A stretch of DNA of 63,703 bases, the filler included, from an uncultured Methanosarcinales archaeon (GTDB lineage: Archaea; Nanobdellota; Nanobdellia; Woesearchaeales; UBA12501), in the NCBI GenBank assembly GCA_964397315.1. It is 3 parts of 3 records of this genome, joined end to end, with 100 filler letters (N's around TTAATTAATTAA, not from the genome) between each part and the next. Parts side by side here need not be neighbours in the genome. Positions count along the whole stretch, not along the records: positions 1 to 27,343 come from CAYNHV010000002.1; 2 more parts are not named here. One strand, written 5' to 3'. Each line of letters starts with the position of its first letter. Position 1 is the stretch's first letter. Positions 11,099 through 27,343 of the stretch are shown here, one piece after another. The notes beneath the pieces were generated by a model, which saw only the letters and a program-made list of their open reading frames with translations, did no database searches and was not told the DNA's origin. The position numbers and the translations under genes were made by a program.

Positions 11099-11125
11099 AC
11101 GGCAAAAGGGAAATAGCTGATTGGT

Positions 11126-14100: not shown

Positions 14101-14917
14101 TCATCATTACAGAATTTGTCAGTATTTTTATATCATTGGGGTTTAAAACAAGGCCTGATTCAAAGTGTTCTGAAGCCGCTTTGAAATCCCCTTCTTCTAA
14201 AAAACATAGTCCTAAATTATTTTCAATTTTCGCCCTAAGTTCAATGTTTGTAGCATCTTCTTTTTCAATATCTTCTTTAAGCTGCAAATACAATCGCTTG
14301 GCTTCGAGTGAATTACCACTCTGAAGTATTTCCCTTGCAGTTTCATGTCTTACTTCAAAAGACTTTTCATCTCCATTATATCGAGAGTCTTTTACTTTCG
14401 CCTCTCCAGTATGATTTAATAATGTACTTTCAAACTCATTAATTCTCGATAGAATCTTTTCTTCTGAATCTCTAGTTGCTTGAATATTTGCTCTGCCGAA
14501 TTCGGTCGTTCTTTCGCCATAGTGTTCGATGCGCCCTGCGAGGAATAACGGAGCATGATACGAAGTAAGCAGTTCTTGAATCATTGCTTTAATGAAATCT
14601 TCGATAATCTTGGTCGCGCTATCTATAGTCGTTTCATTATCAAAAAATTCCGAAATATGTACAAAAGACGAAACCAAGTCCGCAATTTTTAAATTGCCAT
14701 TACCAGTCACTATCATTTGTTTAAATTTTATGAAATCATTGGAATTAACCCATCCGCCAAGTTGTTCCCTCAATGAGGGAAATTGTTCATGTAGAATAGA
14801 GGTACTGTTGATGGCACGGTCAATGATTCCATCCATTTCAGGACCTTTTAATCTGGCATTTCTACACAAATTGAGAAGAAATTGAATAAGAGAAATTGTT
14901 GGTGACAGGATATCCAT
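11126..14917 (-). CDS. TPR-repeat protein with GreA/B C-terminal-like and PIN domains
   Basis: Long TPR array; AAQKLIGCKKEEEF...YKVLEL (GreAB-C-like); IILDGT, VSQLTLDEF, LLSDD (PIN-like). Confidence 0.75.
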   Translation of the reverse strand: MDILSPTISLIQFLLNLCRNARLKGPEMDGIIDRAINSTSILHEQFPSLREQLGGWVNSNDFIKFKQMIVTGNGNLKIADLVSSFVHISEFFDNETTIDSATKIIEDFIKAMIQELLTSYHAPLFLAGRIEHYGERTTEFGRANIQATRDSEEKILSRINEFESTLLNHTGEAKVKDSRYNGDEKSFEVRHETAREILQSGNSLEAKRLYLQLKEDIEKEDATNIELRAKIENNLGLCFLEEGDFKAASEHFESGLVLNPNDIKILTNSVMMRLQSGEIKKASDSINRALELDSTNEAVKAIYIRLLGSQGRFDELKLYENKEVSKDVAFSLGVVYSQTGDYGAAEKWFYQCLELEEDPQTMLLLAQVFLQQAQIELEGNYIDGERHDSLPMRRCNEAEHLLTKAIQLFSSRPHKLYMAYQSRSACRLFMGELKNALEDIDKVLEYNEEDVDALWNKIRICFQSRKASIAKEALDKLDKLGEGYKDLNLRFWTLLKNGFSKDAKSILDKSLPPGETVDLNNFSFIAGALIDEQEYDFALDILNRGLEIKEDDVSILVLRAQAYWETGRKKEATHDVKKAIGMLPSESSTNSILPLANAAYQIGEYDDAVDLYEKVNVIGTHLMPRYMDSLTRIGNEEKAYKIAKEEREKSGGTVIPGLTEFEASSLLSVGAFKQACELFSKLIETDPENEFYQINAQIALYRMGERDEATKAMIEYANNHPHSANVLMAAAELASFTGKYKDAIDLSYKALMVEYDNPHIQRAYIGTFLRSDSDGGMLDPPDTVCEDIMVKLKDNSGKEIWIHIVFNTDEKSIATKWVVDTNAAQKLIGCKKEEEFSLETKTYKVLELQTKYVRAFQKVLTEFNYSFPDDQSVHSFDVSDNDFSQMLSIIDEGAKKDSDIVQIYNERKLTLGAIGVLKGKTLIDAHLTMISEPNQPVFVFSGSTVERAYAQSVLNDRSNEIILDGTVIITFSIPGLLSLLLEIKRPLIVSQLTLDEFKRCYDQNLSSPRPKGFLSKKGDKYIHHEYTNEDQNSFAELLSSHISFIEQHCEVVPAVGALDGILTNGKKLRKVLGEAQFGALVACKERNAILLSDDQGFRDIAQNDYRIPGCWSQITLNYFKEMGIITSGQYSECVKEMIKYGYKFIWVDEDIIWHQLDKDCTTICTDAELTLKSIESPDVTEDSAVEVAANLLQRVWLEAGTTERRLLILKTIIESLVLNRSPKYVLRKLNRNLETKFALLPIQLEEVKQEIARLASIHFWDTA

Positions 14918-15156
14918 GCTAGTCCCCCACTCCAAAGCCTATACAGGTGTAATCAAGTACTTCGCCGATATTAAGATTTGGAACATTGTTTGCCAATATC
15001 TTAACTTTATTGAACCTCATATATCACCATAATAACTATCCTGATTATTTTTGGCAAATTTGGCCACCTGTTTCTTACACTTTTGATTCTCTCTGCTCCC
15101 TTCCCGCCCTTACTCCGCTTCCCTTTCCTGATTTTAGGGGCTGAGCGGCTTGTGTT

Positions 15157-15506
15157 TGTGCCAGGATTTTCTGTTTTTGTTTTTTTGAGGGGCCTGGGGG
15201 CCTTGTGATTTCCGGCTTTGCGGGCTTTTAAAATGTGCCAGGAATGTGCCAGGATTTGGTGAAATTGGTGGAATTTTTGGGGTTTTGTGGGTTGTGTGGA
15301 ATGCGGCAGCCGACCCGAAAATTTCAATTATTACGGTAACTTAGCGGATTTGATTGGTTTTTTGGATTTGGCGGAAAATGGCTCGTATCGCTTTAGAAGT
15401 CCGTTGCTCTATCCCCTGAGCTACAGGCGCTTTGTCTTTAGAATCAGTTACTTACGCTGTTTTTGATGGTGGCATTTTCTTGAAAATGTGCCAGGATGTG
15501 CCAGGA
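15157..15506. mobile_element. Putative attP of the integrative element
   Basis: TGTGCCAGGA at 15157, 15234, 15245, 15487 and 15497 flanking a tRNA-derived core (15393-15430); IHF consensus AATCAGTTACTTA at 15442-15454; directly downstream of int. Confidence 0.75.
15393..15430 (-). pseudogene. 5' half of tRNA-Arg(TCT) (att core)
   Basis: GCGCCTGTAGCTCAGGGGATAGAGCAACGGACTTCTAA covers acceptor 5' strand, D arm and anticodon loop; no 3' half follows. Confidence 0.85.
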
Positions 15507-15512
15507 TTTGCT

Positions 15513-16523
15513 TTAGATGGCGCTTTTGAGGTCTTCCTCGTCTATTGTGTCGTATCTGGTGAGCATGCTTATTGTCTTGTGTCCGGTTATTGCCATGATG
15601 ACCCTGTCCTGTTTTCCTTCTTTTCTTTTGTTGGTTATGAAGGTGTGTCTGAGGTCGTGGAATCTGAAGTCTTTGATGCCTGCTTTTTTGCATGCGCTCT
15701 TGAACGCTCTTTTTACTGATGCTATGGATTTTCCTGCGTAGGTGAAGACGCTGCCTTCTTTCCTTTTGCTCTGAGTGAGTGTCTCGTGGAGCAGTGTGCT
15801 GATGGGTATTTTTCTTGGCTCGTTTGTTTTTGTCTGCTCCGGCTTTAGTGTGATGAATCCGCTTTCCAGGTCTACCTGCTCCCATTGGAGGCTGAATATT
15901 TCTCCTGCTCTCATTCCTGTCTCGTGGGCTGCTATGAGTATGGGCTTGAGGTGCTTTGGTGATGCTGTAAGCAGTTTTTGGAATTCTTCTTTTGTGAGGA
16001 CTCTGTCTCTTTTGTTGTTCTCCTTCAGGAGCTTTATGTGTTTCATGGGGTTGTTTTCCAGTTTTTCGTTTCTTATTGCCCTGTTGTAGATTGTCCGCAA
16101 ACAGGCGAGTTCCTTGTTTATTGTTGCGGGTGCGGGTTGCTTGCCGTTGCGCATTGTGGATTTCTTCCTGTAGAGTATGTAGTCCTCTATGTGCATTGGC
16201 CTGATGTCTGCTGCTGGGCGGTCTTTGAAGAAGGCCTTGAGGTGTTTTATGCAGTCCTGGTCTCTACGCCAGCTTCGCTTATGAGCTTTGGCGTAAGTTA
16301 GAAAGTCTTCTGCTATGTCAAAGAACGTGACCTTGCGCTGCTGTATTCTTTTCTCGTATGCTCCCCCGCCGATGTCCATGATGATTCTGGCGAGGATTTG
16401 CTCTGCTTCGCGCTGGGTCGTGGCCTTTGTGGCCTTTCGGATGTCCCTGCCGAAGGGGTCATGGTATCTTACGTACCACGTGACCCTGCCGTTGGTTCCG
16501 GCTCGCTTGTAAGTGCTTGCCAT
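15513..16523 (-). CDS. int: Tyrosine recombinase / phage-type integrase
   Basis: TGMRAGE, KT, FHDLRHT, TGH, RY catalytic motifs; arm-binding-like N-terminus (WYVRY); SD AAAGGAG before ATG 16523. Confidence 0.95.
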   Translation of the reverse strand: MASTYKRAGTNGRVTWYVRYHDPFGRDIRKATKATTQREAEQILARIIMDIGGGAYEKRIQQRKVTFFDIAEDFLTYAKAHKRSWRRDQDCIKHLKAFFKDRPAADIRPMHIEDYILYRKKSTMRNGKQPAPATINKELACLRTIYNRAIRNEKLENNPMKHIKLLKENNKRDRVLTKEEFQKLLTASPKHLKPILIAAHETGMRAGEIFSLQWEQVDLESGFITLKPEQTKTNEPRKIPISTLLHETLTQSKRKEGSVFTYAGKSIASVKRAFKSACKKAGIKDFRFHDLRHTFITNKRKEGKQDRVIMAITGHKTISMLTRYDTIDEEDLKSAI

Positions 16524-16590
16524 TAGGCTGCTCCTTTCAACGAGCCGGCTGCCGCTTCCGTTATTAGTATAGCACGGGAGGGCATTTTTT

Positions 16591-16773
16591 TCAGTTCCTC
16601 CTGGCCTCCAGGATCTTTCTTTCAATGTCTTTTTCGCTGAAGCGGATGCATCTCCTGCCGTCATGGCCGAGGTCTATGTAGCTTATTCGTTTTTCGTCTA
16701 TCCACTTGTAGATGGCTGAGACGCTGACGTTGAGCATTTCCGCTGCTTCCTTTGCTGTGAGGAGCTTTTCCAT
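16591..16773 (-). CDS. xis: Excisionase-like HTH_17 protein
   Basis: LLTAKEAAEMLNVS...IYKWI...RF pattern, adjacent to int. Confidence 0.85.
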   Translation of the reverse strand: MEKLLTAKEAAEMLNVSVSAIYKWIDEKRISYIDLGHDGRRCIRFSEKDIERKILEARRN

Positions 16774-16776
16774 GGC

Positions 16777-17379
16777 TTAGTTCCTTTCCGGCTGTTTTAT
16801 TGCCTCAAGAATTTCATTTATTGTTTTGCTTCCGTCTGAGTATTCTATCCATGCCTTGTTGTGCTGGGTGTCGTATTTGATTATTGGTATTGGCTCTCCG
16901 CATGGGAGTGCTTCCCTGTCTGGGTTTTGATATTCCTGGAAAAGCTTGTAAAAGGGTTGGGGTGTTGTCCATTCGTCAAAGAGGTGGGTGTTGTTTTTCT
17001 TCTGCTCCTGTCTTTTCCTGTACCTTTCTTTTATCATGCCGTAGTTGTTGCAGAAGCAGTGGATGAGGTATGGCTGTGCGCTGTTCTTTTCTGCTGTGTG
17101 GTATGCTGCTTTGCGGAATATTCTGAGGGCGAATGTTCCGTCTATTATCACGCTTCTGCCCTCCATGAGGTGCTCTTCTGCCTGCTTTAGGGTTAGGCGG
17201 TATACGTGATGCCTTTCCAGGGGGTTTGTGTTGATGATGCCCGGGTTGTCGCAGTGCCGTTTTCTTATGTCATCAGTGCACACCCTGCTGATGCCCAATC
17301 TTTCGCTGAGTTCTGTTGAGAGTGTTGACTTGCCCGAGCATTGGAGGCCGCAGCAGATTATCATGATTGGGCTGTGCAT
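16777..17379 (-). CDS. AAA_33-type P-loop kinase
   Basis: GLQCSGKST, TDDIRK, SVIIDGTF...R. Confidence 0.8.
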   Translation of the reverse strand: MHSPIMIICCGLQCSGKSTLSTELSERLGISRVCTDDIRKRHCDNPGIINTNPLERHHVYRLTLKQAEEHLMEGRSVIIDGTFALRIFRKAAYHTAEKNSAQPYLIHCFCNNYGMIKERYRKRQEQKKNNTHLFDEWTTPQPFYKLFQEYQNPDREALPCGEPIPIIKYDTQHNKAWIEYSDGSKTINEILEAIKQPERN

Positions 17380-17380
17380 T

Positions 17381-17635
17381 TTATCCTCTCCTTAACAGCT
17401 TTATTGCTGCGATGATGCTTATGAGGAGCATTGCAAGGGATACTGCTGAGAGCACCGGGTTGTTGTGGTGGAGTATGCTGATTTGCGGCAGGTGGAGGCC
17501 TGGAGATGGAATGTTGAATGAGATGTCGTGAGTGAGCAGGTAGTAGGCTATGGTTGCTGTGGTGATTATTATGATGCTGCGCTTCCACGCGATGCGCCTC
17601 AGGAGATTTCTTAAATCTATTTTTTCGAGGTTCAT
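17381..17635 (-). CDS. Small two-TM membrane protein
   Basis: Two hydrophobic stretches; tightly packed in the gene run. Confidence 0.65.
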   Translation of the reverse strand: MNLEKIDLRNLLRRIAWKRSIIIITTATIAYYLLTHDISFNIPSPGLHLPQISILHHNNPVLSAVSLAMLLISIIAAIKLLRRG

Positions 17636-17638
17636 GGC

Positions 17639-18712
17639 TTACTCCAGGTAGTCGTCTATGAGCTTCAGCTCAACGTTCTTTGAGGGCTGGATGCCTGTCT
17701 TTTTCATGGCTTCCTTTAATTCAAAAACAAGAATTGTCTTGTTGAAGCCGTTTTTGAGGTTTCTGTCTATGTTGTCCTGTATGTTTGTGGTGTGGATGCA
17801 CACTTCCACTGCAATAAGCCCTTCAGGTGTTTTTACTGCAACATCGCAGTCCAGGTGTTCCTGTTTGGCTTCGCAGCCGTTTTTTTCATAATATTCGGCA
17901 ATCCTTTTCTCATAGTAGGCATGTTTCAGGCCGCCTTTTCCTGTGTATTTTTTGCTCGTCTTTCCCAGTGCTTTCAAACCTTCTTTTTTTATGTCTGTGA
18001 GGCTTGCCGCTCCTCCCCTGCCTTTTCTTGTTTTTGCTGACTCTTTTGAGACAAGGCCTTTCATTATTAAGGTGTTGAGTGCCTTGTTTCCTTTTGAGGC
18101 TGAAAGGTTGAGCATTTTATAGCGCTCTACTGTGGTGAGGAAAGGGTGCTCGTGTATGTTTTCCAGAAGCATTCCGGCGTCTTTGTCAAAGTAGAATGAG
18201 GGGGCTTCCTTAACAGCTTTCAGTTCAGCTTTTGGAGTTGATTCTGTATTGTATGCTGCCTGCTCTCTTGGTATTACCTGCTTTTGCAGTTCTTTAACCT
18301 TTTGTCTGGCTTCAGGCTTGAGTATTACGGGTTTCTTCCTTATCTCGTCTGCCTTGTTGAATGCCTTGATTATGAACGGCCTTTGTATTCGTCTGGTTGA
18401 GATTATGGCGTGGTAGTTGGGAAGCTTTGAGATCATTTCCTGCTCTTCTCTTGAGAGGCTGCAGGCCTGGCCCATGTATCTCGCGTCTTCAGCATCTGAG
18501 AGGTTGAAGATTATTTTTGTGTAGGCTTCGCTTCTGAGGCTGGACAGGACGAGATGGGGCTGGTGTGTTATGACTACTGCGCCCACGCCTGAAGAGCGTG
18601 ATGTTGTGAACAGTGATGATGCTGTGGGGTATCCTATCATGGCCTGCTCGGCGTGTTTGCTGAAGGTGGTGTCACCTTCATCGTAAACAAGAACTGTGTT
18701 CAGTTTGCTCAT
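17639..18712 (-). CDS. C-terminal part of split HerA/VirB4-like ATPase (Walker B, wHTH, PD-(D/E)xK-like domain)
   Basis: VLVYDE, R..GVGAVVITHQP, E...CDVAV...IAVEV; ATGA overlap and SD GGAGGTG. Confidence 0.7.
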   Translation of the reverse strand: MSKLNTVLVYDEGDTTFSKHAEQAMIGYPTASSLFTTSRSSGVGAVVITHQPHLVLSSLRSEAYTKIIFNLSDAEDARYMGQACSLSREEQEMISKLPNYHAIISTRRIQRPFIIKAFNKADEIRKKPVILKPEARQKVKELQKQVIPREQAAYNTESTPKAELKAVKEAPSFYFDKDAGMLLENIHEHPFLTTVERYKMLNLSASKGNKALNTLIMKGLVSKESAKTRKGRGGAASLTDIKKEGLKALGKTSKKYTGKGGLKHAYYEKRIAEYYEKNGCEAKQEHLDCDVAVKTPEGLIAVEVCIHTTNIQDNIDRNLKNGFNKTILVFELKEAMKKTGIQPSKNVELKLIDDYLE

Positions 18713-19662
18713 TTTCTTTTGTACACCTCCGTTAAGTACTGGTAGATGTTTAAGCATATGAACTCCTGCGAATAATAATCTAAATCCGTGAGGTTTATGA
18801 TTACGAACTCGTGGGCGAGCTTTTCCAGGGGAAGCCCTTTGAGGCAGTCAAATATCTTCCCGCTCTTGTTGCTTAAAAGTCCGGCGAAGCGGTTTTCAAG
18901 AACTCCCTCGTACCTTGTTCTGGGGAGCTTTTTGATTTCCTCGTAAAGCTCGTAAACAGAGAATGGCCTGCCGTTGTGCTGCTTATCCAGCTTTTCAAGA
19001 AGGGTGCTTACCTGGTTGGCGCTTCCTTCGCGGAAGAAGAATACCTCGCCTGCAAGTTTTGTGAAGCGCTGAAAAACTATCTCTCTGTTATGCCCTTCAT
19101 GCCAGAGGGGATTTATTTTTAACGTGTCCGAATCAAGAAAAATTATCTCATCATTAATGTTGTAAAGGTAATCCTCATCAAGCTTCATTGTCTGAAAGAA
19201 AAACATCCCTATACGGTCATCTTCTTTCAATCCGTAAGTTTGATTGAAGCGGTGAATCTCGGACGCCAAAACGTAAAGTATATTGGTCTTGCCGCTTCCT
19301 GTTCCCCCAGCGATGAGGTTTGGGCATGTCAACTCAATGGGGTAGAGGCTGTAGACCGGCTGGTTACTCATAGGCTGGTTGAAGTCGTAGATGACCTGGC
19401 CCAGTTCCAGGGGGCCGTGGGCGTCTTCATGGTTGATTCGGTGCCTGTAGGGGTTTGGGTTCTCACCTGCTGTTGAGTTGGCCGCTATGGTCTGGGTGAG
19501 TTCTTTTTTCACGCTTTGCACGAAGGGTGATTTTTGGTGGCTTTCGTCGAGCTGAAGGAGCTTTAGCGCCTTGAGCGCTCTGCTGTCGCTCTCTTTGCCT
19601 GCGAGCTGTATGAGCTGGAGGAATTGAAACAGGAATGAGTTCTGCGGCGGTCTTGACTTCAT
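18709..19662 (-). CDS. N-terminal part of split HerA/VirB4-like ATPase (Walker A)
   Basis: LIAGGTGSGKT, KINPL, VIINL; SD AAGGAG before ATG 19662. Confidence 0.75.
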   Translation of the reverse strand: MKSRPPQNSFLFQFLQLIQLAGKESDSRALKALKLLQLDESHQKSPFVQSVKKELTQTIAANSTAGENPNPYRHRINHEDAHGPLELGQVIYDFNQPMSNQPVYSLYPIELTCPNLIAGGTGSGKTNILYVLASEIHRFNQTYGLKEDDRIGMFFFQTMKLDEDYLYNINDEIIFLDSDTLKINPLWHEGHNREIVFQRFTKLAGEVFFFREGSANQVSTLLEKLDKQHNGRPFSVYELYEEIKKLPRTRYEGVLENRFAGLLSNKSGKIFDCLKGLPLEKLAHEFVIINLTDLDYYSQEFICLNIYQYLTEVYKRK

Positions 19663-19667
19663 TGCTA

Positions 19668-20213
19668 TTACTCCTTGAGGAAGAGCAGGCTCAGCACTTG
19701 TCCTGTGAGCCAAAGTGTTAGTTTGATGGGGAAGAGCAGGATTGTGGTGGTTATGCTGATGATGTAGGCTCTCCTGCACATTGTCCTGCTGTTGAACTCG
19801 TGCCTGCAATTCCCGCATAGAAGCTCTCTGGAGCTGTGGTATTCGCATGATGCTGCTTCGCTGGCGTGCACCAGGCTTTTGCATTGCGAGCATGCACCAA
19901 GAATGTCCTTGTCCTCGTGTACAAGGTAGCCTGCTCCTGAGGTGTTGAATGAGCGGGTTATGGTCGTGTTCATGCCGCTTTCTGTTTCCTCGTCTATCTG
20001 CTCGCGGTCATACAAAATGCCCTCATTTGAGCGCGTGAGCCTGCCGATGCTTCGCCTTCTTGTTACAAGCTGCGGGTCAGGCTGCTGCACTGTTGCAGGT
20101 TGTGCTGTGTTGTCCTGGAGCTGCCATTGCTGCCCGCAGCTTTGGCATTGGAAGCGGCCTGTTTCAAGAAGCGCAAGGTTGTTGCTGCCGCAGAACGGGC
20201 ACTTTCTCTGCAT
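19668..20213 (-). CDS. Multi-Zn-finger protein with C-terminal membrane anchor
   Basis: CPFC...CQSC, CSQC...C..H...CGNC; hydrophobic C-terminus. Confidence 0.7.
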   Translation of the reverse strand: MQRKCPFCGSNNLALLETGRFQCQSCGQQWQLQDNTAQPATVQQPDPQLVTRRRSIGRLTRSNEGILYDREQIDEETESGMNTTITRSFNTSGAGYLVHEDKDILGACSQCKSLVHASEAASCEYHSSRELLCGNCRHEFNSRTMCRRAYIISITTTILLFPIKLTLWLTGQVLSLLFLKE

Positions 20214-20536
20214 TATTCGCCTTCCTCGTCTGTTTCAAAGGTTTCCTCTTGCTCGTAGGCGTCGTGCTCCTCTGTTTGCTTTCTTATCTCCTCCCATGCC
20301 TCATCATTCTCCATGTGCAGCAGCCTCTCATAATCAAGCTCTACACCCTCTTCCTCTGCATCGTTGAGGGTGCGCTTTACAGTTGAGAGGAGAACCTCAT
20401 CATTCGTGTTGGCCGGCTTGCGCCTGTCATTCTCCCTGCGGTCATTTGTTATGCCGTGATGGATGGAATTCTCCGGGAACTTCTTGTTGTTGAGTCCGGT
20501 GAGCTTGAGGGCCAGTTTTGCCTTTGGTTTTTTCAT
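20213..20536 (-). CDS. Hypothetical protein with acidic C-terminus
   Basis: Purine-rich SD before ATG 20536; TAATG coupling to the next gene; overlaps the E1 tail by 95 nt. Confidence 0.5.
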   Translation of the reverse strand: MKKPKAKLALKLTGLNNKKFPENSIHHGITNDRRENDRRKPANTNDEVLLSTVKRTLNDAEEEGVELDYERLLHMENDEAWEEIRKQTEEHDAYEQEETFETDEEGE

Positions 20537-21932
20537 TTCCTTCTCTCTCCTGCTTTTCGTTTGCTTTTCCCGGTTTTTTTGCCTGGTTTTTCTTTTTCGT
20601 GATTTCCCCGCATAGTGGGCAGTTTTCGCTTTTTTCAAAGTCTGCTGTCATCAGGCTCATCTTTTGCTGGTCGTAGAAGATGGCTTTCTGGCCTTTGAGG
20701 TTTTCGCCGAATACGAGCTTTATGAATTGTGAGATGGCTATGCTGCTGATTGTGCTGTTGAGGTGTATTACTGAGGGTGTGGGGGTTTCGTTTGTGCCCC
20801 GGATGTATCCTGCTTTTTTGTAGTCCTCGGCTATTTCTTCTGTGGTTTCTTCCTGTGCTGCTTCGCTGAGGTCTATTCCGCCGTAGCATATCAGGCAGCC
20901 TTCTCCCGGAATGGTGGTTCTTACCTGGCCTCCGGCGTGGTAGCCCTTCTCTTCTGGTATTATTTCGCTGGCAGCGTCTATGTATGGGATGTCGTGCTCT
21001 GTGGAGATTTGGGTGATGGTTTTTCTTGCTGCTTCTGAGTCCACGCATCCCATTATGACCTGGGCGCTGGTGAGGGTTTCAAGAGTTTCTTTGTCCTGAA
21101 CTTTTTTGTTGACGATAAAGGTTTTAATGTTGGGGTTTTTGTGGGTTGCGTATCTGGCTGCTACCTGCACTTTGGGCTTGCCGATGTCTTCTCTTGTGGC
21201 GTAGGGTATTCTCGGCAAATTTGATTTTTCTATGATGTCATCGTCTATCAGGATGATTTCTCCTTTTCCTTCTCCAACCCCGAGGCAGACGAGCTTCTGG
21301 AATACTTCTGCTCCGATGCCGCCTGCTCCTATGATTGCAACTGTTAAGTTCGGCAGGGCGTGCTGTTTCCAGCCGGGGATGATGTGGTGCCTTGAATACA
21401 TTGCATCTTTCTCTTGTTCCTTCGGCGCTTCATGGTTGTGCATTATGATGGAGGGGCTTCCGAGCACTTCTATTCTTTCCAGTGGAACGAATTCGTTTTT
21501 TGAGTAATTGAAAATCATTCCCGAATATGAGGTGGCGTGGCTGTTGAACACTATGAGGCTGAAGTCCAGGCGCGGCTTGCATTTTGAGAGGAACTCTGCG
21601 TTTCTTCTGCCTTCAGCGTGGTCTGTGCCGCTGAATGATGGGGTTTGCTGGAAGGGATGGCTGTGCACGTCAATCAGTGTGCTTCCGTTTTTCGCTGCCA
21701 CCTCATAGGCCTTGAGCTGGAATTCCTTTTTAGGCTCTACAAACGCGGCCTTGTGCGTTTTCATTTCCTTTTCATCCGGTATCAGTATTTCCTTTACCGA
21801 ATAAGCAAATGTGTCGGGATTGGGTTTTGTCTTCTCACAAAGGATGAAAAGAAATTGCTCCCTCTCATCACTCATGAGATGTTGTCTGATAATTTCATAA
21901 TCGCGGCTTGTCATTCTCAGCAAATGCTTCAT
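20442..21932 (-). CDS. JAB/JAMM peptidase fused to ThiF/E1-like adenylating enzyme
   Basis: E25, H90-S-H92, S101-x-x-D104; GAGGIG, DDDIIEKSNLPR, GKPKV, GCVD, CLIC and CPLC. Confidence 0.9.
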   Translation of the reverse strand: MKHLLRMTSRDYEIIRQHLMSDEREQFLFILCEKTKPNPDTFAYSVKEILIPDEKEMKTHKAAFVEPKKEFQLKAYEVAAKNGSTLIDVHSHPFQQTPSFSGTDHAEGRRNAEFLSKCKPRLDFSLIVFNSHATSYSGMIFNYSKNEFVPLERIEVLGSPSIIMHNHEAPKEQEKDAMYSRHHIIPGWKQHALPNLTVAIIGAGGIGAEVFQKLVCLGVGEGKGEIILIDDDIIEKSNLPRIPYATREDIGKPKVQVAARYATHKNPNIKTFIVNKKVQDKETLETLTSAQVIMGCVDSEAARKTITQISTEHDIPYIDAASEIIPEEKGYHAGGQVRTTIPGEGCLICYGGIDLSEAAQEETTEEIAEDYKKAGYIRGTNETPTPSVIHLNSTISSIAISQFIKLVFGENLKGQKAIFYDQQKMSLMTADFEKSENCPLCGEITKKKNQAKKPGKANEKQEREGNEKTKGKTGPQAHRTQQQEVPGEFHPSRHNK

Positions 21933-21945
21933 CTTGCTACTCCCT

Positions 21946-22557
21946 TCACGTTTTGGGGTTTTTCATGTCCGCCCTTATCATCTCTATTAACACTATCAGG
22001 TCGTCATAGTTGGGATCCCACTTGATGTTTTCATAGCACCACCAGGCCCAATAAGGGTCATCCCTGAAATTGCTTCCTTCGTGAAGGTCTCCGGGTTTTC
22101 TGCCGTGGTAGCGCAGGCTTGAGGGGACGAATATACGGTGGCTGCCCACTCCCGGCGGGGAGAGTGGGTAATCCGGCGGGATCTCTATGAGAATGGGGAT
22201 TCTGCTGAGGTTGTAGCCCGTGGGCAGGTGAACATCGTGAACTTTTATGTGGGAGCCGTCCTCTGAAACGTCCACGGGGCAGGCATAGGAGAGGGCGTCA
22301 ATGTGGTATAAGAGGGTGGGGAAAGGGGCGCTGTGCGCCCCTCCCCTTTTATGTGAGGGAACATCAGCGATGCTGTAGTCCTCGGGAAAAACAAAATTAC
22401 CGCTTGAAGGCACGAGCCGGTTACCACCTCCCGGTGCCTGCAGGACAAGAGACCTGTCGGATGGTATTCCGGCTGCCTTTCTCACGTCTTCAGACCAGAC
22501 AGTTCCGCTTTCGTTTGAGCGAATGTCAACTTCTTTGCCGTTCACAACTCTCCTCAT
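21946..22557 (-). CDS. Ubiquitin-like domain (ends KRGG73) fused to prokaryotic E2/UBC-like domain
   Basis: Internal di-Gly; LPTGYN, LIEIPPDYPLSPP, WAWWC174, WDP..DDL resemble Prok-E2 family E. Confidence 0.75.
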   Translation of the reverse strand: MRRVVNGKEVDIRSNESGTVWSEDVRKAAGIPSDRSLVLQAPGGGNRLVPSSGNFVFPEDYSIADVPSHKRGGAHSAPFPTLLYHIDALSYACPVDVSEDGSHIKVHDVHLPTGYNLSRIPILIEIPPDYPLSPPGVGSHRIFVPSSLRYHGRKPGDLHEGSNFRDDPYWAWWCYENIKWDPNYDDLIVLIEMIRADMKNPKT

Positions 22558-22799
22558 TTTATTACTCCTTTCCTGATGAGTTTTCTCTTGTTATACCTTA
22601 CATACCCAGAGGAGGCGGGCTTTTGAAAGCCCTGCCTTGTGGGTGCGACAGCCTGAAGCAAGGCCCTGAACTGCTGCAGCACGAACAGGGCAAGCTCGGC
22701 CAGCTTAACTCCCAGAAGGATTGTCAGGCAGCCTGCGACAAACCAGCACCCGAACCACATGAGCGCCTCGGAAAACTGAATCATTGCGTCAGCGTTCAT
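22554..22799 (-). CDS. Small single-TM protein
   Basis: SD AAGGAG; hydrophobic segment; ATGA overlap with Ubl-E2. Confidence 0.6.
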   Translation of the reverse strand: MNADAMIQFSEALMWFGCWFVAGCLTILLGVKLAELALFVLQQFRALLQAVAPTRQGFQKPASSGYVRYNKRKLIRKGVIK

Positions 22800-22815
22800 A
22801 GCAAAACTCCTTTCC

Positions 22816-23052
22816 CTAAATCGCTTCCTCAGAAGCATCTTCTGAGAAGCTTTCCTCTATTGGGTGCATCTGGCCTGGCTTAAGCTCAAAGATGACGGGC
22901 ACGTTATTCCCGGGTTGGAAGAAAGTGGCCATTTTTAAGGAGCCGCTGGAGCATTTGCCGGATTTGCAGGCCCAGAGCCTTTGGTTTTTGCCGCGGCATT
23001 GGATTTCAAGGGTTTTCTCGCCGCATTTGGGGCATTTTGCTTTGTTTTGCAT
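22816..23052 (-). CDS. Small Zn-ribbon protein
   Basis: CPKC...WAC....C. Confidence 0.65.
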   Translation of the reverse strand: MQNKAKCPKCGEKTLEIQCRGKNQRLWACKSGKCSSGSLKMATFFQPGNNVPVIFELKPGQMHPIEESFSEDASEEAI

Positions 23053-23091
23053 TTGATTTTCCTTTCTTTGGGGGTTGGGGTGGTTTTCTTT

Positions 23092-23361
23092 CTATTGCCT
23101 TTTCTTTTTGTTTGCTTTCTGGCCTTTATCACCTCCTCCCTGCTGCTTGGGGTATGTGTTGTTCCTTCCTGTTATTAGGCAATATTGGCATGTGCTCACA
23201 GTATGGCTTATAAGTTGCTGTGTGAGGGCAACATTCTTTGAAGCGCCTGATTTTGCTCCGTTTTTCTGCATTTGCCTTTCCCCGGATTTGCTCCTGATTT
23301 TCACCTTGCTTTCCCATAAGATTTCCTTAAGATTGGCCGTGATTGCTCCTGTATTACTCAT
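23092..23361 (-). CDS. Small basic hypothetical protein
   Basis: SD AGGAGG; start overlaps the upstream gene end; CQYC. Confidence 0.45.
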   Translation of the reverse strand: MSNTGAITANLKEILWESKVKIRSKSGERQMQKNGAKSGASKNVALTQQLISHTVSTCQYCLITGRNNTYPKQQGGGDKGQKANKKKRQ

Positions 23362-23767
23362 ATTCCTCCTGATAGCCTCCTTTCTTACGGGTGAAGGGAG
23401 CGTATTCATCAAGGCTTATATAATTGAATGGGAGTTCAGAAGAAGGCTTTTTCGTGGGTGGGTTCTCGACCACAAGCAGGTTGTTTTCAAGAAGTTCAGG
23501 GTTGAACCTGTGCCCAAGCCCGGTGAGGCATTCAATCAACTCACCGGCAGAATCCTTGCCGATTACCTTGCCAAGCCTTTTTCTAAGCTCAAACAGGGAG
23601 TTATCATCAATTTTTTCATCACCTGGGATATAGGGAAGCTCTTCAACCGTGAAGCTTAGATAATAAAGGAGCTTCAGAAGGGCAGCTGGCAGCTTGATGT
23701 ACTCCCCATTCTTGTAGAAGCGCCATGTTTTGGCGTTGAATCGGTATTTGGGGTTTTGTTGTGCCAT
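23354..23767 (-). CDS. OmpR/PhoB-type winged-helix DNA-binding protein (stand-alone)
   Basis: GEYIKL....KLL.YL, LFELRKRL, IECLTGLGHRF. Confidence 0.65.
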   Translation of the reverse strand: MAQQNPKYRFNAKTWRFYKNGEYIKLPAALLKLLYYLSFTVEELPYIPGDEKIDDNSLFELRKRLGKVIGKDSAGELIECLTGLGHRFNPELLENNLLVVENPPTKKPSSELPFNYISLDEYAPFTRKKGGYQEEYE

Positions 23768-24201
23768 AGTGTCCAGCCTTGTTTAAATGCAGGGGTTACT
23801 TGCCTTCTTCACCTTTTACTCGTATTTTTTCCTGCAACTTTTTTGATTGCCGATCCTGATGTAGATATAAGTGAACAATTTTCCACGAATGAAATAGAGG
23901 ATGATTGGCATTTGAACTCTCCTAGCCTTCGATTATGAAAACAGCATACCATAGATAGCAGTGTGAAGAAAAATATTTTATTTAACCTGTCTTTTTCGGA
24001 AATATATCTTTACAAACAGGCAGTTATGAGACATGACCGGTTAAAAATTGGCCTTTTTTTGAGGCTTTTTGGTTTTTGCGGCACGGCTTATCCGATTTTT
24101 CATTCAAATCAGCCACTTATGTGACACAGAAGAAAACGAAAAATTTATAAATACCGGCGAATCGGGGATATACAGTTTATTAACCACTTAAACGTAATAA
24201 A

Positions 24202-25008
24202 ATGGAGTACGAGGGATTTGATAGGGAAGAAGCTAGAAGGTTGTTTGCTTACACTCAGGAAGTGTTTTTCAGCAGACCTAGGCCCATTACGGGATTAGAG
24301 GACAGAATTAGGGCACCACCTATTGTTGCGAATTTTGAACACTTAGAAAGGATTTGCCGTAAATTTGACTTGCCGGTAGATATTTTTTATGATAATAAGC
24401 AAGAGGTTGATCTGAATTGGAGGAATTTTTACGAGTTTTTGCTGGATGACAGGGTACCGTCTAACTTGAAGCGTTTGTCTGGGGAAACTTATCCGGTGTT
24501 GCGGACTGTTTCTCAGTTGTATGAGTCAATAAAGGATTTTGATTTGCCGAGAAATCGCTATCCATATAAGTCCGAAGATCTCGGTAAGCAGGTATATTTG
24601 TATGTTATGAGGACTGCACCATACACATCTCCTGATGAGTCAGAGCAGGTTGAGATGCTTAGCAAGGCGCTTTTCATGACGAGGGACGATTTGGCGTCCA
24701 GGTCGGGGTTAACAAAGAATTATATTACTCGTTTAGAGAAGGGTAACTCTAAGTTGAAGTGGGAGCATATGAATAGGTTAGGTAAAGCGCTTGGTGTTTA
24801 TGAGCATGCTACAGGCACATCAGACTTTTGTGAATACAAAGCTCACAGGCTGGATAAAAGATTCAGGCAATTTTTAAGCGATACCACTGTTCCATCTTTT
24901 AGCAGGGATAGGTTGCCGAGGGTGGAGCATATTCATCCAGACTTGAAATATTCGGTTACCGGAATGTATTTTCTGCTAAAACATTTTAAAGAAATGGAAA
25001 GGTCATGA
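24202..25008 (+). CDS. XRE-family HTH-containing protein
   Basis: MTRDDLASRSGLTKNYITRLEKG......MNRLGKALGV. Confidence 0.7.
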   Translation: MEYEGFDREEARRLFAYTQEVFFSRPRPITGLEDRIRAPPIVANFEHLERICRKFDLPVDIFYDNKQEVDLNWRNFYEFLLDDRVPSNLKRLSGETYPVLRTVSQLYESIKDFDLPRNRYPYKSEDLGKQVYLYVMRTAPYTSPDESEQVEMLSKALFMTRDDLASRSGLTKNYITRLEKGNSKLKWEHMNRLGKALGVYEHATGTSDFCEYKAHRLDKRFRQFLSDTTVPSFSRDRLPRVEHIHPDLKYSVTGMYFLLKHFKEMERS

Positions 25009-27343
25009 AGGACGCGAGTAAATTCCTTAAGCTTGTCCGAAAGGTTGTTGTCCTTAGAGATAAGCACAAATTTAAAGAAAATCAGCAGTATCGTATTTGT
25101 GAGTTGCTTTCGGACTATAATTTTCACACGTATCGAGAGATTTATGATTATTTAAGATGTATCTTGTGCGATGATGGCTCTCCTATTATCAGGACAGAAT
25201 TCGACGAACACAACATTATAGTTCAGATCAATAAAATTCAAAAGAAATTCAATGATTACTTTTTAGTCGGTGATGGAGCAGGTTCTAATCAACAAGTTAA
25301 GATATTACAATTTAACAAGCGGCAAAAACAAGGACAGGGAGAGAATGGTTGCCAATTATTATGGGATAAAAAAGTCATGCCGAAGCCTATTTCTGTTGCG
25401 AAAGAAGAAATTGGAAGCAAAAGAGGACCTGAAATTAATGACAAAGCGTTTTGGGAAGCGAAGTTTAAGGAATACTTACAAAAGCTTGTTGAAGATGAGC
25501 GGTTTTCTCGTTGGGCAGGGAAGGACAAGTACATCGAGCAGCAGACTCTAACTCCTGACAAATCTGAAAAGAAGAAGGATTTATTTGATTATGTTGAGAG
25601 AACAAAGGAATTCAGGAAAAGGGAATTGAAGGGTGAGGGTATTTCTCCTGAATCTTTCGGCTATATTTCCGGGAAGATTCTAGATTTTTTGGGGAAGGCA
25701 GAGAATAAGAAGGCTCTTATTGTTGGCGAGCCTGGTATTGGCAAGACCTCTGCTGTTGAGAAATATTTTTACGATGTTGCTATTGAAGAGTTGAGGAAGA
25801 GTTCCCCTCAAATAATTCCAATATTTCTCGAATCTATTTTCGCACGTAATAAATCATCCTTTTTCGATTTCATTATTGAAGGACTTGAGAACACTATTTC
25901 TGATTTCAGAAGTTTGAGTGAGGATAACCTTGACGATTTTATTGAAAATGGGCGAATCCTTTTGATATTAGACGGTTTTAATGAAATTACTAGCAATGAT
26001 TTAAGGGAGGACATTGAATGTTGGATAAATCGAGGTAATCATAAGAAGCTTAAATGCTTTATTACCACAAGGAAGTTTTTGCATCCCAAATTTCTGAATG
26101 ATTTTGAGCGTTTTGAGTTGCAGTATTTTGATAAAAACAGAGATATACGAAAATTTCTTGAAGTACACTATCCAAAAAAGGCAGCAGGCGCATTGAAACA
26201 AATTGAAAAGCAAAATCTCTTAGGATTGGCCAGCGTTCCCTTTTATTTGAACGCAATTGGAAAAATCTATCAACCGAATGAGGAGCTACCTCCGACTAAA
26301 GGGAAGCTTCTTGAAAGGTTGGTTGAAATCGAATATCTAAAAAAGCGTGAACAAAAAGATGTTGCACTTGACGATAATGACATCGCAGAGATTCTTCCCA
26401 TAATAGCCTTTAAAATCAATAGAAACAGAAGTATAAATTGGGAAATTAGTTTTGACCAAGACAGATACAATGCAATAATTAACGAGTTGCCTGCTGAACG
26501 AAAGCCAGGAAAGGATTTTAAGAATAAAACCATGAGAACGGGCTTATTACACAATGTACATAAAGAATCATTTTTTACTCACCAGATACTTTCCGAATAT
26601 TTCGCAGCATTGGAATTAAAAAGACGGCTTTTAGAGAATGAAGAAGGGCTGCGGGATGAAAAATTTCAGAAGGGTTATCTTAATTATCTTAAATGGACCG
26701 AACCAATATCATTGATGATGGGATTGATTGATGATTTGAATCATGAAAGTCGTATTGTTGTGATTGCCATGGAAGTCGACCTTCTACTTGCGGCAAAACT
26801 GTCCGGTTGTGTAAAGGAGGAACATCAGGACAACACGTTATCAGCATTACTAAGAAAGAAATTGGATAAGTATTCAACGATAGAGATATTGAAAGAGAAT
26901 CAAACAAAATATGCAGCTAATAGACTAACGAATATGTTTAATACGGAAGATAAATTACTTAAACATCTTATAGTTGATGCAATGCTATATATTGATTATG
27001 AATCTGTAGTTTCTGATATTGTTGGAATTATAATAGACAAGGATGAAAGTAGAATTGAACGAAAGTTGGCAATCCGGAAGGTGGGAGAAATCGGTGATAA
27101 ATCTGCTGTCTCTGAGCTTGTTGTTATTAGTAAAGACAAGGGCGAAGACAGTTCGGTTCGGAATTCGGCAATATACGCATTGGGGGAAATCGGTGATGAA
27201 TCTGCTGTCTCTGAGCTTGTTATTATTAGTAAAGACAAGGGCGAAGACAGTTCTGTTCGGGATTCGGCAATAAACGCATTGGGAAAAGTCGGTGATAAAT
27301 CTATTGCCCATGAGCTTGTTGGGATACTCAAGGATAAGGATGA
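25005..27343 (+). CDS. NACHT (STAND) NTPase with HEAT repeats, truncated at contig end
   Basis: GEPGIGKT, LLILDGFNEI, ITTR, LASVPFYL, FTHQILSEYFAA; ALGEIGD HEAT units. Confidence 0.9.
27082..27343 (+). repeat. 99-bp coding tandem repeat (HEAT units)
   Basis: Units start at 27082, 27181 and 27280; the first two differ at 6 positions; the contig breaks inside the array. Confidence 0.9.

Follow-up and report, generated by a model that had tools for sequence, protein, structure and literature searches.

A Bub-like Ubl-E2/JAB-E1 pair and a HerA-type ATPase-nuclease in a compact integrase element on an archaeal contig

Does a Ubl conjugation pair carried by a small integrative element serve the life cycle of that element, or is it cargo? 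A sequence-only reading of DNA assigned to an uncultured archaeon had placed such a pair in the element's backbone operon, and had proposed a life-cycle role in a possibly undescribed class of element. We followed this up in the window, the whole stretch of 63,703 nucleotides analysed, which consists of three contigs with N runs between them at 27344–27443 and 46779–46878. Since the archaeal contig ends at 27343 and the remainder belongs to other contigs, genes to the right of this position are not neighbours of the element.

An integrase/excisionase element and its operon

Fourteen minus-strand open reading frames (ORFs), among them every gene described below, cover 15513–23767, bearing out the roughly 14 co-oriented genes of the sequence-only reading. 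They lie in a compositional island of ~8.8 kb (~15.1–23.8 kb) with low-GC defence genes on both sides. Composition shifts at ~14.75–15.0 kb, and the flanking TPR-PIN, type IIG R-M, M78/DUF4411 and NACHT genes are unlike the element in composition, so that the claimed separation of the Ubl pair from these genes stands. The non-coding end region of the element (15099–15512) contains five exact copies of TGTGCCAGGA, at 15157, 15234, 15245, 15487 and 15497, within two direct repeats of ~33 nt, together with a 38-nt bacterial-type 5′ half of tRNA-Arg(UCU) on the minus strand (15395–15432) that differs from the genome's own tRNA-Arg(UCU). A variant contig from sequencing run X2 diverges from the window left of 15099. 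We infer that the end region holds att or arm sites. At ~8.8 kb, this is a compact element of the tyrosine-integrase/excisionase kind, lodged in mobile DNA of the archaeal contig. Capsid, relaxase and T4SS families were not found in the operon, in agreement with the earlier reading, which had also seen no terminase; the only packaging-like match is a weak one of the HerA C-terminal half to a PHROG 'terminase large subunit' (7e-7).

The integrase, xis and kinase labels given earlier were upheld by profile matches. The tyrosine integrase (15513–16664; Phage_integrase, 3.2e-26; Phage_int_SAM_5, 1.8e-10) is 32% identical to that of locus L013, and its true start is likely 16523, given Met48 and the overlapping xis gene. 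The latter encodes an excisionase-type HTH protein (16591–16773; HTH_17, 2e-13; TIGR01764 excise, 2.7e-10). The kinase (16777–17379) is of the P-loop type and polynucleotide-kinase-like (AAA_33, 2.6e-19; phrog_505 polynucleotide kinase, 3.2e-9), and these matches led us to reject a protein kinase for this gene; no counterpart was found in related loci at blastp E ≤ 1e-4.

For most of the small genes, too, the motifs or transmembrane (TM) segments described earlier were found. The 84-aa TM protein directly after the ATPase (17381–17635; TM at aa 58–83) is the positional counterpart of a 72-aa TM protein in relatives, with no detected sequence similarity to it. Directly upstream of the ATPase, in the window as in relatives, is a Zn-finger protein with a C-terminal TM anchor (19668–20213; CxxC at aa 5, 23, 108 and 133; TM at 149–169) that has weak Zn-ribbon Pfam matches and a counterpart family upstream of HerA in eight loci. 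A 94-aa membrane protein (22554–22838; TM at aa 24–55) and a 62-aa basic protein (23129–23317; 14 K/R) belong to no family found, and the 78-aa Zn-ribbon protein between them (22816–23052; C7-x2-C10 ... C29-x4-C34) matches Zn_ribbon_IS1595 at an E of only 0.051. The operon's first gene (23354–23767; 137 aa) has no Pfam, NCBIfam, PADLOC or PHROG match, and its earlier 'wHTH' label was not borne out, no family being found at E ≤ 0.1. An uncertain gene, the highly charged 141-aa ORF at 20213–20638 (33 K/R, 32 D/E; no family), shares 197 nt with the 3′ end of the JAB-E1 gene and is perhaps shorter than called, or spurious.

The Ubl pair and the HerA-type ATPase-nuclease

Both labels of the pair held. 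The BubAB-like Ubl-E2 pre-protein (21946–22557) matches Prok-E2_E (PF14462) at 6.9e-6, with 26.3 bits against a cut-off of 25, and its E2 profile matches BubB at 1.7e-6. The Ubl half is shown by the predicted structure (pLDDT 88.2), in which a beta-grasp domain at aa 2–67 ends in HKRG(G) and is followed by a disordered linker (70–78) and then the E2 domain. This model matches BubA(155–229) and BubB in Foldseek (BubB 9eae_C, 7.7e-5, TM 0.68; BubA 9ea8_B, TM 0.64). Free-standing Ubl ORFs of relatives end exactly at ...RG or 1–3 residues beyond it, and the E2 cysteine, Cys174 in the window, is invariant in 43 of 43 E2 domains. The BubCD-like JAB peptidase-E1 fusion (20442–21932; ThiF, 5.9e-38; Prok-JAB, 1.6e-4) has Citrobacter BubCD as its best solved relative (9ea4, 1.6e-22, aa 7–408). 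Residues E25, H90, H92, S101, D104, C346/C349, G375-Y376 and C438/C441 and the GxGGxG motif are kept in 32 relatives. The pair is a cysteine-type variant of published Type I Bub (BubAB/BubCD). By analogy with BubAB/BubCD biochemistry, the JAB domain would cleave the pre-protein after the conserved ...KRG and the E1 domain would adenylate the terminal glycine of the Ubl, which may pass via Tyr376 (equivalent to Tyr370 in BubCD); once released, the E2 would load the Ubl on Cys174 and transfer it to a target.

The 'split ATPase/nuclease' of the sequence-only reading was right in that both parts are present; in detail, the two ORFs are halves of one HerA-type ATPase-wHTH-PD-(D/E)xK protein, cut at an ATGA overlap. 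The N-terminal half (18709–19893, true start likely 19662) carries the Walker A motif GGTGSGKT, and its aa 78–392 are 53% identical to aa 1–317 of an unsplit relative, P0040. The C-terminal half (17639–18712) carries Walker B, an arginine sensor, a winged helix and the nuclease domain, and is 52% identical to aa 323–671 of P0040. The junction DNA places its ATG across the stop of the N-terminal half, and the 67%-identical relative P0118 begins at the same Met and shares the split. Its matches to PADLOC mad8 (6.3e-9) and NCBIfam CedD (2.8e-4) are weak, and the catalytic nuclease residues are invariant across 54 sequences. The halves would be made by translational coupling, and the ATPase would be membrane-tethered; it is flanked by the Zn-finger-TM and small TM proteins.

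Relatives of the element and the role of the pair

Planctomycetota reference genomes (10 loci, all those returned by a pattern scan covering one genome per species) and metagenomes (38 loci) were the only sources of relatives. Outside the window, the family of this element is seen in Planctomycetota. The E2 family was absent from all 400 other genomes of the host phylum, which raises the possibility that the locus is a non-functional passenger in the archaeon, either a bacterial element in decay or a chimera that arose in assembly or binning. The bacterial-type tRNA fragment and a coding-strand GC skew of -0.07 to -0.14, against a host mean of +0.13, point the same way. We nevertheless consider this very unlikely: none of the 14 ORFs is interrupted, the two ATPase halves meet in a clean overlap that a relative has too, and a Tyw1-type gene and an intron-bearing tRNA-Val lie on the same contig. 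Moreover, a Logan contig from run X1, which may be the source sample, covers 11276–20689 without difference, and depth in this run is even (6.5–8.7) over most of 8000–27343, the exceptions being a dip at 22190–22834 and peaks at the tRNA-like fragment and terminal repeats.

The synteny expected from the earlier reading was recovered among relatives. Of 13 loci whose upstream sequence extends to 2.5 kb or more, 10 have a Zn-finger-TM/HerA-nuclease/TM trio immediately before the pair; where it extends to 600 nt or more, the HerA-nuclease is directly upstream of the pair in 19 of 31 loci. The three exceptions among the 13, two of them identical, have a TrwC relaxase two genes downstream of the pair. 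In L013/L014, the relatives closest to the window, the pair is followed by xis-int and preceded by a gene for a Replic_Relax protein (1.9e-19); this Replic_Relax type is represented by two overlapping metagenome contigs. Elements end in xis-int, the integrase abuts a convergent tRNA in all eight loci where this could be judged, and some relatives have a primase-like gene (phrog_16345, 5.7e-28) and a sigma-like regulator. A quick JAB-E1 tree places the HerA link on both sides of the midpoint root. Because the window HerA is of a different lineage (25–28% identity to the HerA of other loci) and in a different gene order, the HerA-Ubl pairing has been either kept or re-made. The pair is not, however, a fixed part of the backbone, and, against the earlier reading, related HerA-integrase backbones mostly lack it: among 401 Planctomycetota genomes the ATPase family occurs in 29 and any E2 match in 10, four of them strong. 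Sister elements with the same tm95-xis-int tail have GrpE-Hsp70-vWA or PP2C and Ser/Thr kinase genes in the slot of the pair, which is therefore dispensable for the backbone.

From these neighbourhoods we suggest, with a probability of about 0.4, that the pair is a swappable accessory that regulates or helps the DNA-processing protein of the element itself, and that it therefore acts on transfer, replication or establishment and is not independent cargo. The partner would be the HerA-nuclease in the window and most relatives, and TrwC relaxase or Replic_Relax elsewhere; the core of the present element would be a membrane-tethered HerA-wHTH-PD-(D/E)xK machine with a cysteine-type Type I Bub relative. 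Against such a life-cycle role stand the modules of the sister elements and the size of the HerA-nuclease family (1,829 representatives at E ≤ 1e-30), which is far larger than the E2 family and mostly lacks the pair. A related idea, in which the pair would promote establishment or counter host defence by tagging immune or proteolytic proteins of the host on entry to a new cell, appears improbable to us. Leading-region genes of conjugative plasmids protect the incoming element, and four loci, with the pair between a recombinase or orphan MT-A70/Type II methyltransferase and a relaxase, resemble that layout; the methyltransferase of relaxase-type loci matches PADLOC MTase_II at 5.3e-43. Most loci, however, are of the HerA type without relaxase, and a pair inside a long operon ending in xis-int is not an early-entry layout.

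A serious contender, itself short of an even chance, is that the trio and the pair form one conflict system, directed against phages or serving to exclude competing mobile elements, carried by a minimal int/xis element. The HerA-nuclease would then be the effector degrading invading DNA, and the Ubl module its sensor or threshold switch, as would be the Hsp70-GrpE-vWA or PP2C-kinase modules of the sisters. Defence nucleases are often built on a HerA ATPase, and the profile here matches chains of Sir2-HerA, DUF4297-HerA, DptH/DndH and TdpA; five of 10 HerA proteins scanned match PADLOC mad8 (6.3e-9 to 3.1e-15), and MAD7/MAD8 is described as an ATPase-nuclease module required for MADS defence (PMC13662399). 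The invariant nuclease residues, the alternative protein-modifying or chaperone modules beside HerA, and the cassette making up most of the DNA in the smallest elements are also consistent with conflict. Bub, Bil and Cap2 relatives have been linked to immunity, and the E1/E2/JAB pathways whose role is given as shown, Type II CBASS with its relatives and Bil, act in phage defence (PMC11601596). The same Ubl pair nevertheless occurs beside TrwC relaxase or Replic_Relax without HerA, and, as the PADLOC check showed, few neighbours are known defence genes (matches in just 11 of 148 non-HerA neighbours). The authors of the Bub study saw no protection against phages, and so far no Bub operon has been reported to give any (PMC11601596); the membrane-bound HerA-like TdtA of ICEth1 serves, with nucleases, in DNA donation (PMC5365140). 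The HerA-nuclease neighbour in related bacterial elements is a concrete lead to the function of the little-understood Bub-like tagging systems.

Comparison with known systems

Operons of Ubl, E2-like and JAB-E1 genes were described as highly mobile in row 6e of neighbourhoods 6a–6e (Iyer, Burroughs and Aravind 2006, PMC1779556); the window E2 scores above the cut-off of Prok-E2_E. The row 6e E2-like domain is described there as inactive, whereas the window clade has the invariant cysteine, and the descriptions in the available text mention neither HerA-nuclease, integrase nor Planctomycetota. Bil (bacterial ISG15-like) likewise conjugates a Ubl to targets with E2, JAB and E1 proteins, but as separate proteins and with an E1 of tandem adenylation domains and a cysteine domain (as summarised in PMC11601596); PADLOC BilD matches the window E1 at 1.2e-6 only. 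Like Sir2-HerA/Nezha, DUF4297-HerA, DptH, TdpA and MAD7/MAD8 as described, the element joins a HerA-clade ATPase to an effector. Here, however, a wHTH-PD-(D/E)xK domain is fused on as the effector, with the Zn-finger-TM protein, the small TM protein and the Ubl pathway as partners, and no Sir2, DUF4297 or methyltransferase partner was found in the window operon.

The closest system for the pair is Type I Bub (6E.1/DUF6527), whose operons encode BubAB, BubCD and BubE (544 operons in Table S1 of Ye, Gong, Chambers and Corbett, bioRxiv 2024, PMC11601596) and were placed by these authors in mobile elements at tRNA genes. The window pair shares with it the Ubl-E2 pre-protein, the N-terminal JAB-E1 fusion, the best solved sequence and fold matches, the conserved glycine at the Ubl end, the E1 crossover-loop tyrosine (Y376 = Y370) and the location at tRNA genes. 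It differs in having the E2 cysteine in place of the Ser-x-His pair of BubB (an alignment ambiguous by one residue), in retaining CxxC...CPxC motifs in E1 that are absent from the aligned BubCD segment, and in its tight link to a HerA-nuclease; no BubE/DUF6527 protease was found, and the operon has no CapW/BrxR or CapH+CapP regulator. For the element, the precedent is ICEth1 of Thermus thermophilus, a 14-kb tRNA-inserted element that requires nucleases and TdtA, a hexameric membrane ATPase, to donate DNA (Blesa et al. 2017, PMC5365140). These nucleases, a restriction enzyme and a NurA-like protein, are proteins of their own, unlike the fused nuclease here, and the available text reports no Ubl pathway. 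The suggestion of an undescribed class thus gives way to known parts: the pair is a version of the published Type I Bub, and ICEth1 likewise combines small size and insertion at a tRNA gene with a site-specific recombinase, nucleases and an FtsK/HerA-type ATPase, TdtA being likened by description.

The element and its setting on the contig

The 14 ORFs under study lie on the minus strand at 15513–23767. Window positions 1–27343 are the end of contig C2 of a 1.47-Mb archaeal genome in 61 contigs, and the N runs at 27344–27443 and 46779–46878 are the joins between the end of C2, the start of contig C3 and contig C27. We found that the operon forms a compositional island of ~8.8 kb (about 15.0–23.8 kb), with a GC content of 0.45–0.54 against 0.36–0.41 in the flanks. 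The coding strand of the island is unusually A- and C-rich, with an AT skew of up to 0.49 (host mean 0.18) and a GC skew of −0.07 to −0.14 (host mean +0.13). Across 15000–23500 the plus-strand AT skew falls to −0.57, and this strand asymmetry, which differs from that of host genes and of planctomycete relatives, might mirror a single-stranded stage of replication or transfer.

An HTH-M78 (RmrA-like) and DUF4411 pair (4990–6653) shares its neighbourhood with a 1338-aa type IIG R-M/DrmMI-like enzyme (6714–10730), which adjoins the gene for a 1269-aa protein that joins TPRs to a PIN domain of TPR-GreAB-C-PIN type (PF20698, 5.6e-16; 11126–14935 region). A NACHT-HEAT gene at 25005 is truncated by the contig end within 99-nt tandem repeats (26983–27339). 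Because the already known defence genes differ in composition from the island and fall outside it, they are flanks of the element and not its cargo, in keeping with the sequence-only reading, which had set the Ubl module apart from defence cargo. The ~39 kb from a tRNA-Val gene to the end of C2 is mobile DNA, holding a further integrase, a second HerA-family ATPase and an ArdC-M78 protein, and then the window's WD40, DUF4411/HTH-M78, type IIG R-M and TPR-PIN genes. Directly upstream of the window is a second element (L012, G000:C2:75007-87000, G000 being the archaeal genome), whose integrase gene overlaps the intron-bearing tRNA-Val and is followed by a 680-aa HerA/DUF87 protein, 29% identical to the C-half of the window HerA, and then by the ArdC-M78 protein. 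This second HerA-family gene of the genome, beside a different integrase, has no Ubl pair.

Host tRNAs were found only when introns were allowed. A misbinned bacterial contig is disfavoured by the Tyw1-type wyosine gene and the intron-bearing tRNA-Val that C2 bears, and by even depth in the metagenome run X1, possibly the source sample. On C3, the AspRS encoded at 36078–38312 (744 aa) contains a GAD insertion and is fused to a YbaK-type editing domain; the GAD domain is a mark of bacterial-type AspRS and would be unexpected in an archaeal bin.

Family searches upheld most gene labels assigned from the sequence, including the tyrosine integrase and the HTH_17 excisionase (xis). The label that had to be narrowed was 'kinase', as this is an AAA_33 P-loop protein, polynucleotide-kinase-like by PHROG, and not a protein kinase; 'wHTH', for the first operon gene, was left unconfirmed by these searches. 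Sequence analysis agreed with the labels of the small proteins: the 181-aa protein has four CxxC motifs and a TM anchor, the 84-aa and 94-aa proteins both have TM segments, the 78-aa protein is a Zn ribbon and the 62-aa protein is basic. No relaxase, coupling protein or T4SS gene was found in the operon by family searches, and Rfam gave nothing on the window at gathering thresholds.

The Ubl-E2 and JAB-E1 module

JAB-E1 (20442..21932) is a fusion of JAB and E1 domains (ThiF, 5.9e-38; Prok-JAB, 1.6e-4). Its closest solved relative is Citrobacter BubCD (9ea4, 1.6e-22), in a match over aa 7–408 that covers both domains. The model of Ubl-E2 (21946..22557; pLDDT 88.2) has a beta-grasp domain (aa 2–67), a disordered linker (70–78) and an E2 fold, for which Foldseek returned BubB first (7.7e-5, TM 0.68), BubA(155-229) next (TM 0.64) and classical E2s after these. 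The E2-family profile also matches Citrobacter BubB (1.7e-6), the window E2 clears the gathering cut-off of Prok-E2_E (PF14462) with 26.3 against 25 bits, and PF14462 is precomputed for 5 of 7 other homologues. The layout resembles that of Type I Bub (6E.1), with the Ubl fused to the N-terminus of the E2, as in the BubAB pre-protein, and JAB/JAMM at the N-terminus of a homodimer-type E1, as in BubCD. In PMC11601596, the JAB of BubCD cuts the BubAB pre-protein after a conserved glycine, the cascade proceeds by oxyesters on an E1 tyrosine and an E2 serine, and BubE (DUF6527), a serine protease, is the third Bub protein; structures and chemistry of Bub-type pathways are solved, while their biological role and target are given as unknown (Discussion).

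By analogy with BubAB and BubCD, the window module would follow a comparable chemistry. In relatives, the Ubl ends in ...KRG before a linker of variable length, and free-standing Ubl ORFs stop at ...RG or 1–3 residues later, so the predicted mature Ubl end is the Gly of ...KRG. With an Arg before this Gly, trypsin would leave a remnant of one Gly (+57 Da) on a target in place of di-Gly. The JAB metal and E1 ATP motifs are conserved, and the JAB and E1 motifs are intact in the window. In Type I Bub the E1 crossover loop has an invariant tyrosine and lacks cysteine. G375-Y376, which aligns with BubCD Y370, is kept in at least 95% of 32 full-length JAB-E1 relatives. Upstream of the crossover loop there is a conserved C346-x2-C349, which together with C438-P-x-C441 is probably a structural zinc site; ThiF/MoeB has a structural zinc site of similar kind.

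The module departs from Type I Bub at the E2 site. Bub E2s have an invariant serine with His and Asp and no catalytic cysteine, whereas the window's clade has an invariant cysteine, present in 43 of 43 domains covering the site, in the context W-x-W-[WFYLV]-C-[YF] and with mostly E or Q at +2. This cysteine aligns at or beside BubB Ser333, the alignment being ambiguous by one residue. A further difference is the BubE serine protease of Bub operons: BubE had no match among the 14 operon proteins at E<=0.01, and DUF6527 none in the scanned ORFs of related loci at thresholds from 1e-5 to 0.1. Because the module has neither the E2 serine nor a detected BubE, it is a cysteine-type sister of Type I Bub and not a strict member.

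The HerA-nuclease, its neighbourhood and the element ends

Related loci encode the ATPase as one ~680-aa protein, to whose N- and C-parts the two overlapping window ORFs align. These proteins combine Walker A and B motifs and an arginine sensor with a winged helix and a PD-(D/E)xK-like domain whose H, E, D and E residues are invariant. Profile and fold searches (model pLDDT 92.7) placed the ATPase in the HerA clade of the FtsK-HerA superfamily, with matches to Sulfolobus HerA, DndH/DptH, Sir2-HerA, DUF4297-HerA and TdpA, and with TrwB and VirB4 close behind. Three features speak against a pseudogene or −1 frameshift: the N-half stop and C-half start overlap as ATGA, the two halves lie end to end on an unsplit 671-aa relative (P0040) at 52–53% identity, and another relative (P0118, 67% identical, on contigs of up to 13.8 kb) starts at the same Met as the C-half. 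Judged from these alignments, the split is not a random frameshift. HerA-nucleases form a large family, with 27,539 representatives at E<=1e-3, 9,449 at 1e-10 and 1,829 at 1e-30, and the window HerA is only 25–28% identical to the HerA of other loci. Complex prediction for the HerA of one related locus (L008) with its own E2 scored 0.00, which is no answer either way.

A pattern scan of one genome per species recovered 10 loci with the module, all titled Planctomycetota, and a metagenome scan 38 further loci. Of 401 sampled Planctomycetota, 10 had the E2 family (4 strong matches); of 400 other genomes of the host phylum, none did. The viral collection gave no relatives of the E2 alignment or of the HerA C-half; in the plasmid collection, JAB-E1 matched only ThiF-family proteins (24–31% identity) and the HerA of L008 had no match at 1e-8. 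All-against-all ORF comparison gave a recurrent order of [sigma-like regulator] ... Zn-finger-TM, HerA-nuclease, 72-aa TM, Ubl, E2, JAB-E1, 95-aa TM, xis-like and integrase. The window's order differs, the Ubl pair coming first and Zn-finger-TM, HerA and TM after it. Synteny was counted in 44 of the 48 loci, leaving out L009, L010, L033 and L035, in which the E2 ORF was not called; on the map, L033 and L035 also have HerA upstream. JAB-E1 adjoins E2 in 36 of the 44. Upstream, HerA-nuclease is no further than 1.5 kb away in 19 of the 31 loci that extend at least 600 nt in that direction; for loci extending at least 2.5 kb the count is 10 of 13, and thus the synteny proposed from the window holds among these informative loci. 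Of the 12 loci with at least 2.5 kb of downstream sequence, 6 have an integrase no more than 6 kb downstream and 8 have one somewhere in the locus. In a quick, midpoint-rooted JAB-E1 tree (5 rows of deviant composition), the HerA link is present in all main branches.

The pair also occurs beside other DNA-processing genes. The window's nearest relatives (L013–L015; 52% identity in E2, 48–52% in JAB-E1) have the order Replic_Relax (1.9e-19), Ubl-E2, JAB-E1, xis, int. The three exceptions that lack HerA (L011, L044 and L045, of which L044 and L045 share an identical JAB-E1) encode a TrwC relaxase two genes downstream and a serine-recombinase-like protein or MT-A70 methylase upstream. Extra genes in some HerA-type elements encode a primase-like protein (phrog_16345, 5.7e-28), ribonucleotide reductases or a dCTP deaminase. 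The larger members L029 (14811–17231) and L039 (14015–17378) carry ribonucleotide reductase genes (TSCPD-domain class; NrdD with activase) and dCTP deaminase, a virus-like nucleotide metabolism. In L043 (2264–2662) and L046 (1820–2491), a short protein-kinase-domain protein (Pkinase, 1.4e-10) follows JAB-E1 and precedes a primase-like gene.

The sequence-only reading had assigned the Ubl module to the backbone of an integrative element, and here the wider ATPase family told against it. At E<=1e-10 this family is present in 29 of the 401 Planctomycetota genomes, and E2 in 10 of the 401, and therefore most carriers, and with them most related ATPase-integrase backbones, are without the pair. We inspected 19 ATPase-family places without the pair in Planctomycetota. 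Three (L066, L067 and L079) keep the integrase at the end and have GrpE-like, Hsp70 and vWA genes in the slot of the Ubl pair; L079 also retains the 95-aa TM and xis-like genes, and has IS21-type istA/istB after its HerA gene. Another (L074) keeps Zn-finger-TM, HerA and the 72-aa TM, followed by a 268-aa protein, a PP2C phosphatase and a Ser/Thr kinase, with a serine recombinase at the end. The surroundings of other sister places include different integrases, serine recombinases, a KAP NTPase, an SMC-like ATPase or a methylase. The pair is thus clearly dispensable for the backbone, and 'backbone' is therefore too strong a label: what stands of the claim is a conserved accessory of the core cassette.

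Relatives integrate at tRNA genes. In 8 of 8 loci with a complete integrase and continuing sequence, a convergent tRNA gene (Thr, Met, Met, Arg, Phe, Phe, Asp and Phe) overlaps the integrase end or lies within ~100 nt of it. No intact tRNA was found in the window. Positions 15395–15432 (minus strand) hold a 38-nt 5' half of a bacterial-type tRNA-Arg (acceptor, D arm, anticodon loop UCU), which is near the planctomycete tRNA-Arg of L007, a related locus, and unlike the genome's own intron-bearing tRNA-Arg(UCU) on contig C10; community tRNA genes pile onto it to depths of 175–280. Relative to the integrase it points the opposite way from the relatives' tRNAs, and it could not be fitted to a simple integration model. 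The sole repeat common to both element ends is 13 nt long (15276–15288 and 23747–23759), a weak att candidate. Within 15157–15512 there are five exact copies of TGTGCCAGGA, and two ~33-nt direct repeats, placed on either side of the tRNA-like fragment, contain four of the five; these copies are possible integrase arm sites. Two metagenome runs from other samples of the same study (X2 and X3) contain a variant of the 15.1–20.5 kb stretch (int to Zn-finger part), 2–6% divergent and at 2–4 times the flank depth. Its match to the window breaks off at 15099 on one side and on the other at 20537, where JAB-E1 has its 3' end; the latter break, seen in contigs, fits a module boundary there. The variant contigs have a joint at 18685–18788 and are uninformative on the ATPase split. 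The search for runs gave 3 in total, none of them listed as RNA.

Possible roles of the pair and known systems

We favour a reading in which the Ubl pair would assist or gate the element's own DNA-processing protein, and hold it tentatively, at a probability of roughly 0.4. It is favoured because the pair accompanies three kinds of such protein (HerA-nuclease, relaxase and Replic_Relax), because a membrane HerA-like ATPase with nucleases drives DNA donation from ICEth1 (PMC5365140), and because the authors of the Bub work saw no phage protection (PMC11601596). A HerA-nuclease with a swappable protein-state module may instead be a defence or exclusion system riding on the element, as immunity is where HerA-nuclease pairs and bacterial E1/E2/JAB systems typically act; we consider this almost as probable as the favoured reading. 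Around 13 long loci, PADLOC at 1e-8 matched 16 of 148 neighbouring ORFs. Five of these were HerA itself (mad8), and one was scored as pVip but is a radical-SAM NrdG-type protein by Pfam. The others were a Cas3 fragment, a DrmD-like piece, two methylases, a weak SduA, PDC-M41B, a CARF-related protein and, beside L033, a Mokosh-like helicase with a PLD protein and RtcR. With so few known defence genes among the neighbours, the pair is not mainly in unrelated defence islands, a finding on the side of the sequence-only reading.

The Hsp70-GrpE-vWA and PP2C-kinase modules in the same slot of sister elements suggest a general principle for mobile elements, in which interchangeable protein-state modules control their HerA-nuclease machines. 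As the only archaeal member of a family seen elsewhere in this analysis just in bacteria, the window module is also a candidate inter-domain transfer. A fuller proposal, that a thioester-type-E2 Ubl pathway is a built-in control of an as yet undescribed class of small integrative elements that move DNA by a membrane-tethered HerA-nuclease in place of a relaxase and T4SS, the archaeal copy being bacterial-derived, seems to us unlikely. If true, such an element would have passed from bacteria (Planctomycetota-like hosts) to a DPANN-type archaeon, this would be the first prokaryotic 'ubiquitination' to serve horizontal gene transfer instead of immunity, and targets of Bub-like systems would be named. 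The conserved partner set (Zn-finger-TM, HerA-wHTH-nuclease, small TM proteins, xis and int) in elements of 8–11 kb makes the search for Ubl targets and phenotypes small and testable. The clade mixes two chemistries, its E1 tyrosine being Bub-like and its E2 cysteine classical, and this bears on the divergence of thioester and oxyester cascades.

Bub-type conjugation and tRNA-integrating elements with HerA-type ATPases are already known. In the openly accessible literature searched, there was no prior report of a HerA-nuclease with a Ubl-E2/JAB-E1 pair and integrases, nor of a Bub-like E1 with a cysteine E2, of such a module lacking BubE, or of a single copy in an archaeon. In architecture, the element appears analogous to the ICEth1/TdtA-like 'transjugation' elements, which are small and tRNA-inserted and have a hexameric membrane ATPase of HerA/FtsK type, nucleases and a recombinase. 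HerA-based defence systems (Sir2-HerA, DUF4297-HerA and MADS), in which the ATPase works with Sir2, DUF4297 or the MAD1–8 set, are matched at the domain level only, by mad8 and, for the xis HTH, by mad1, and differ in that the window operon has no Sir2, DUF4297 or methyltransferase.
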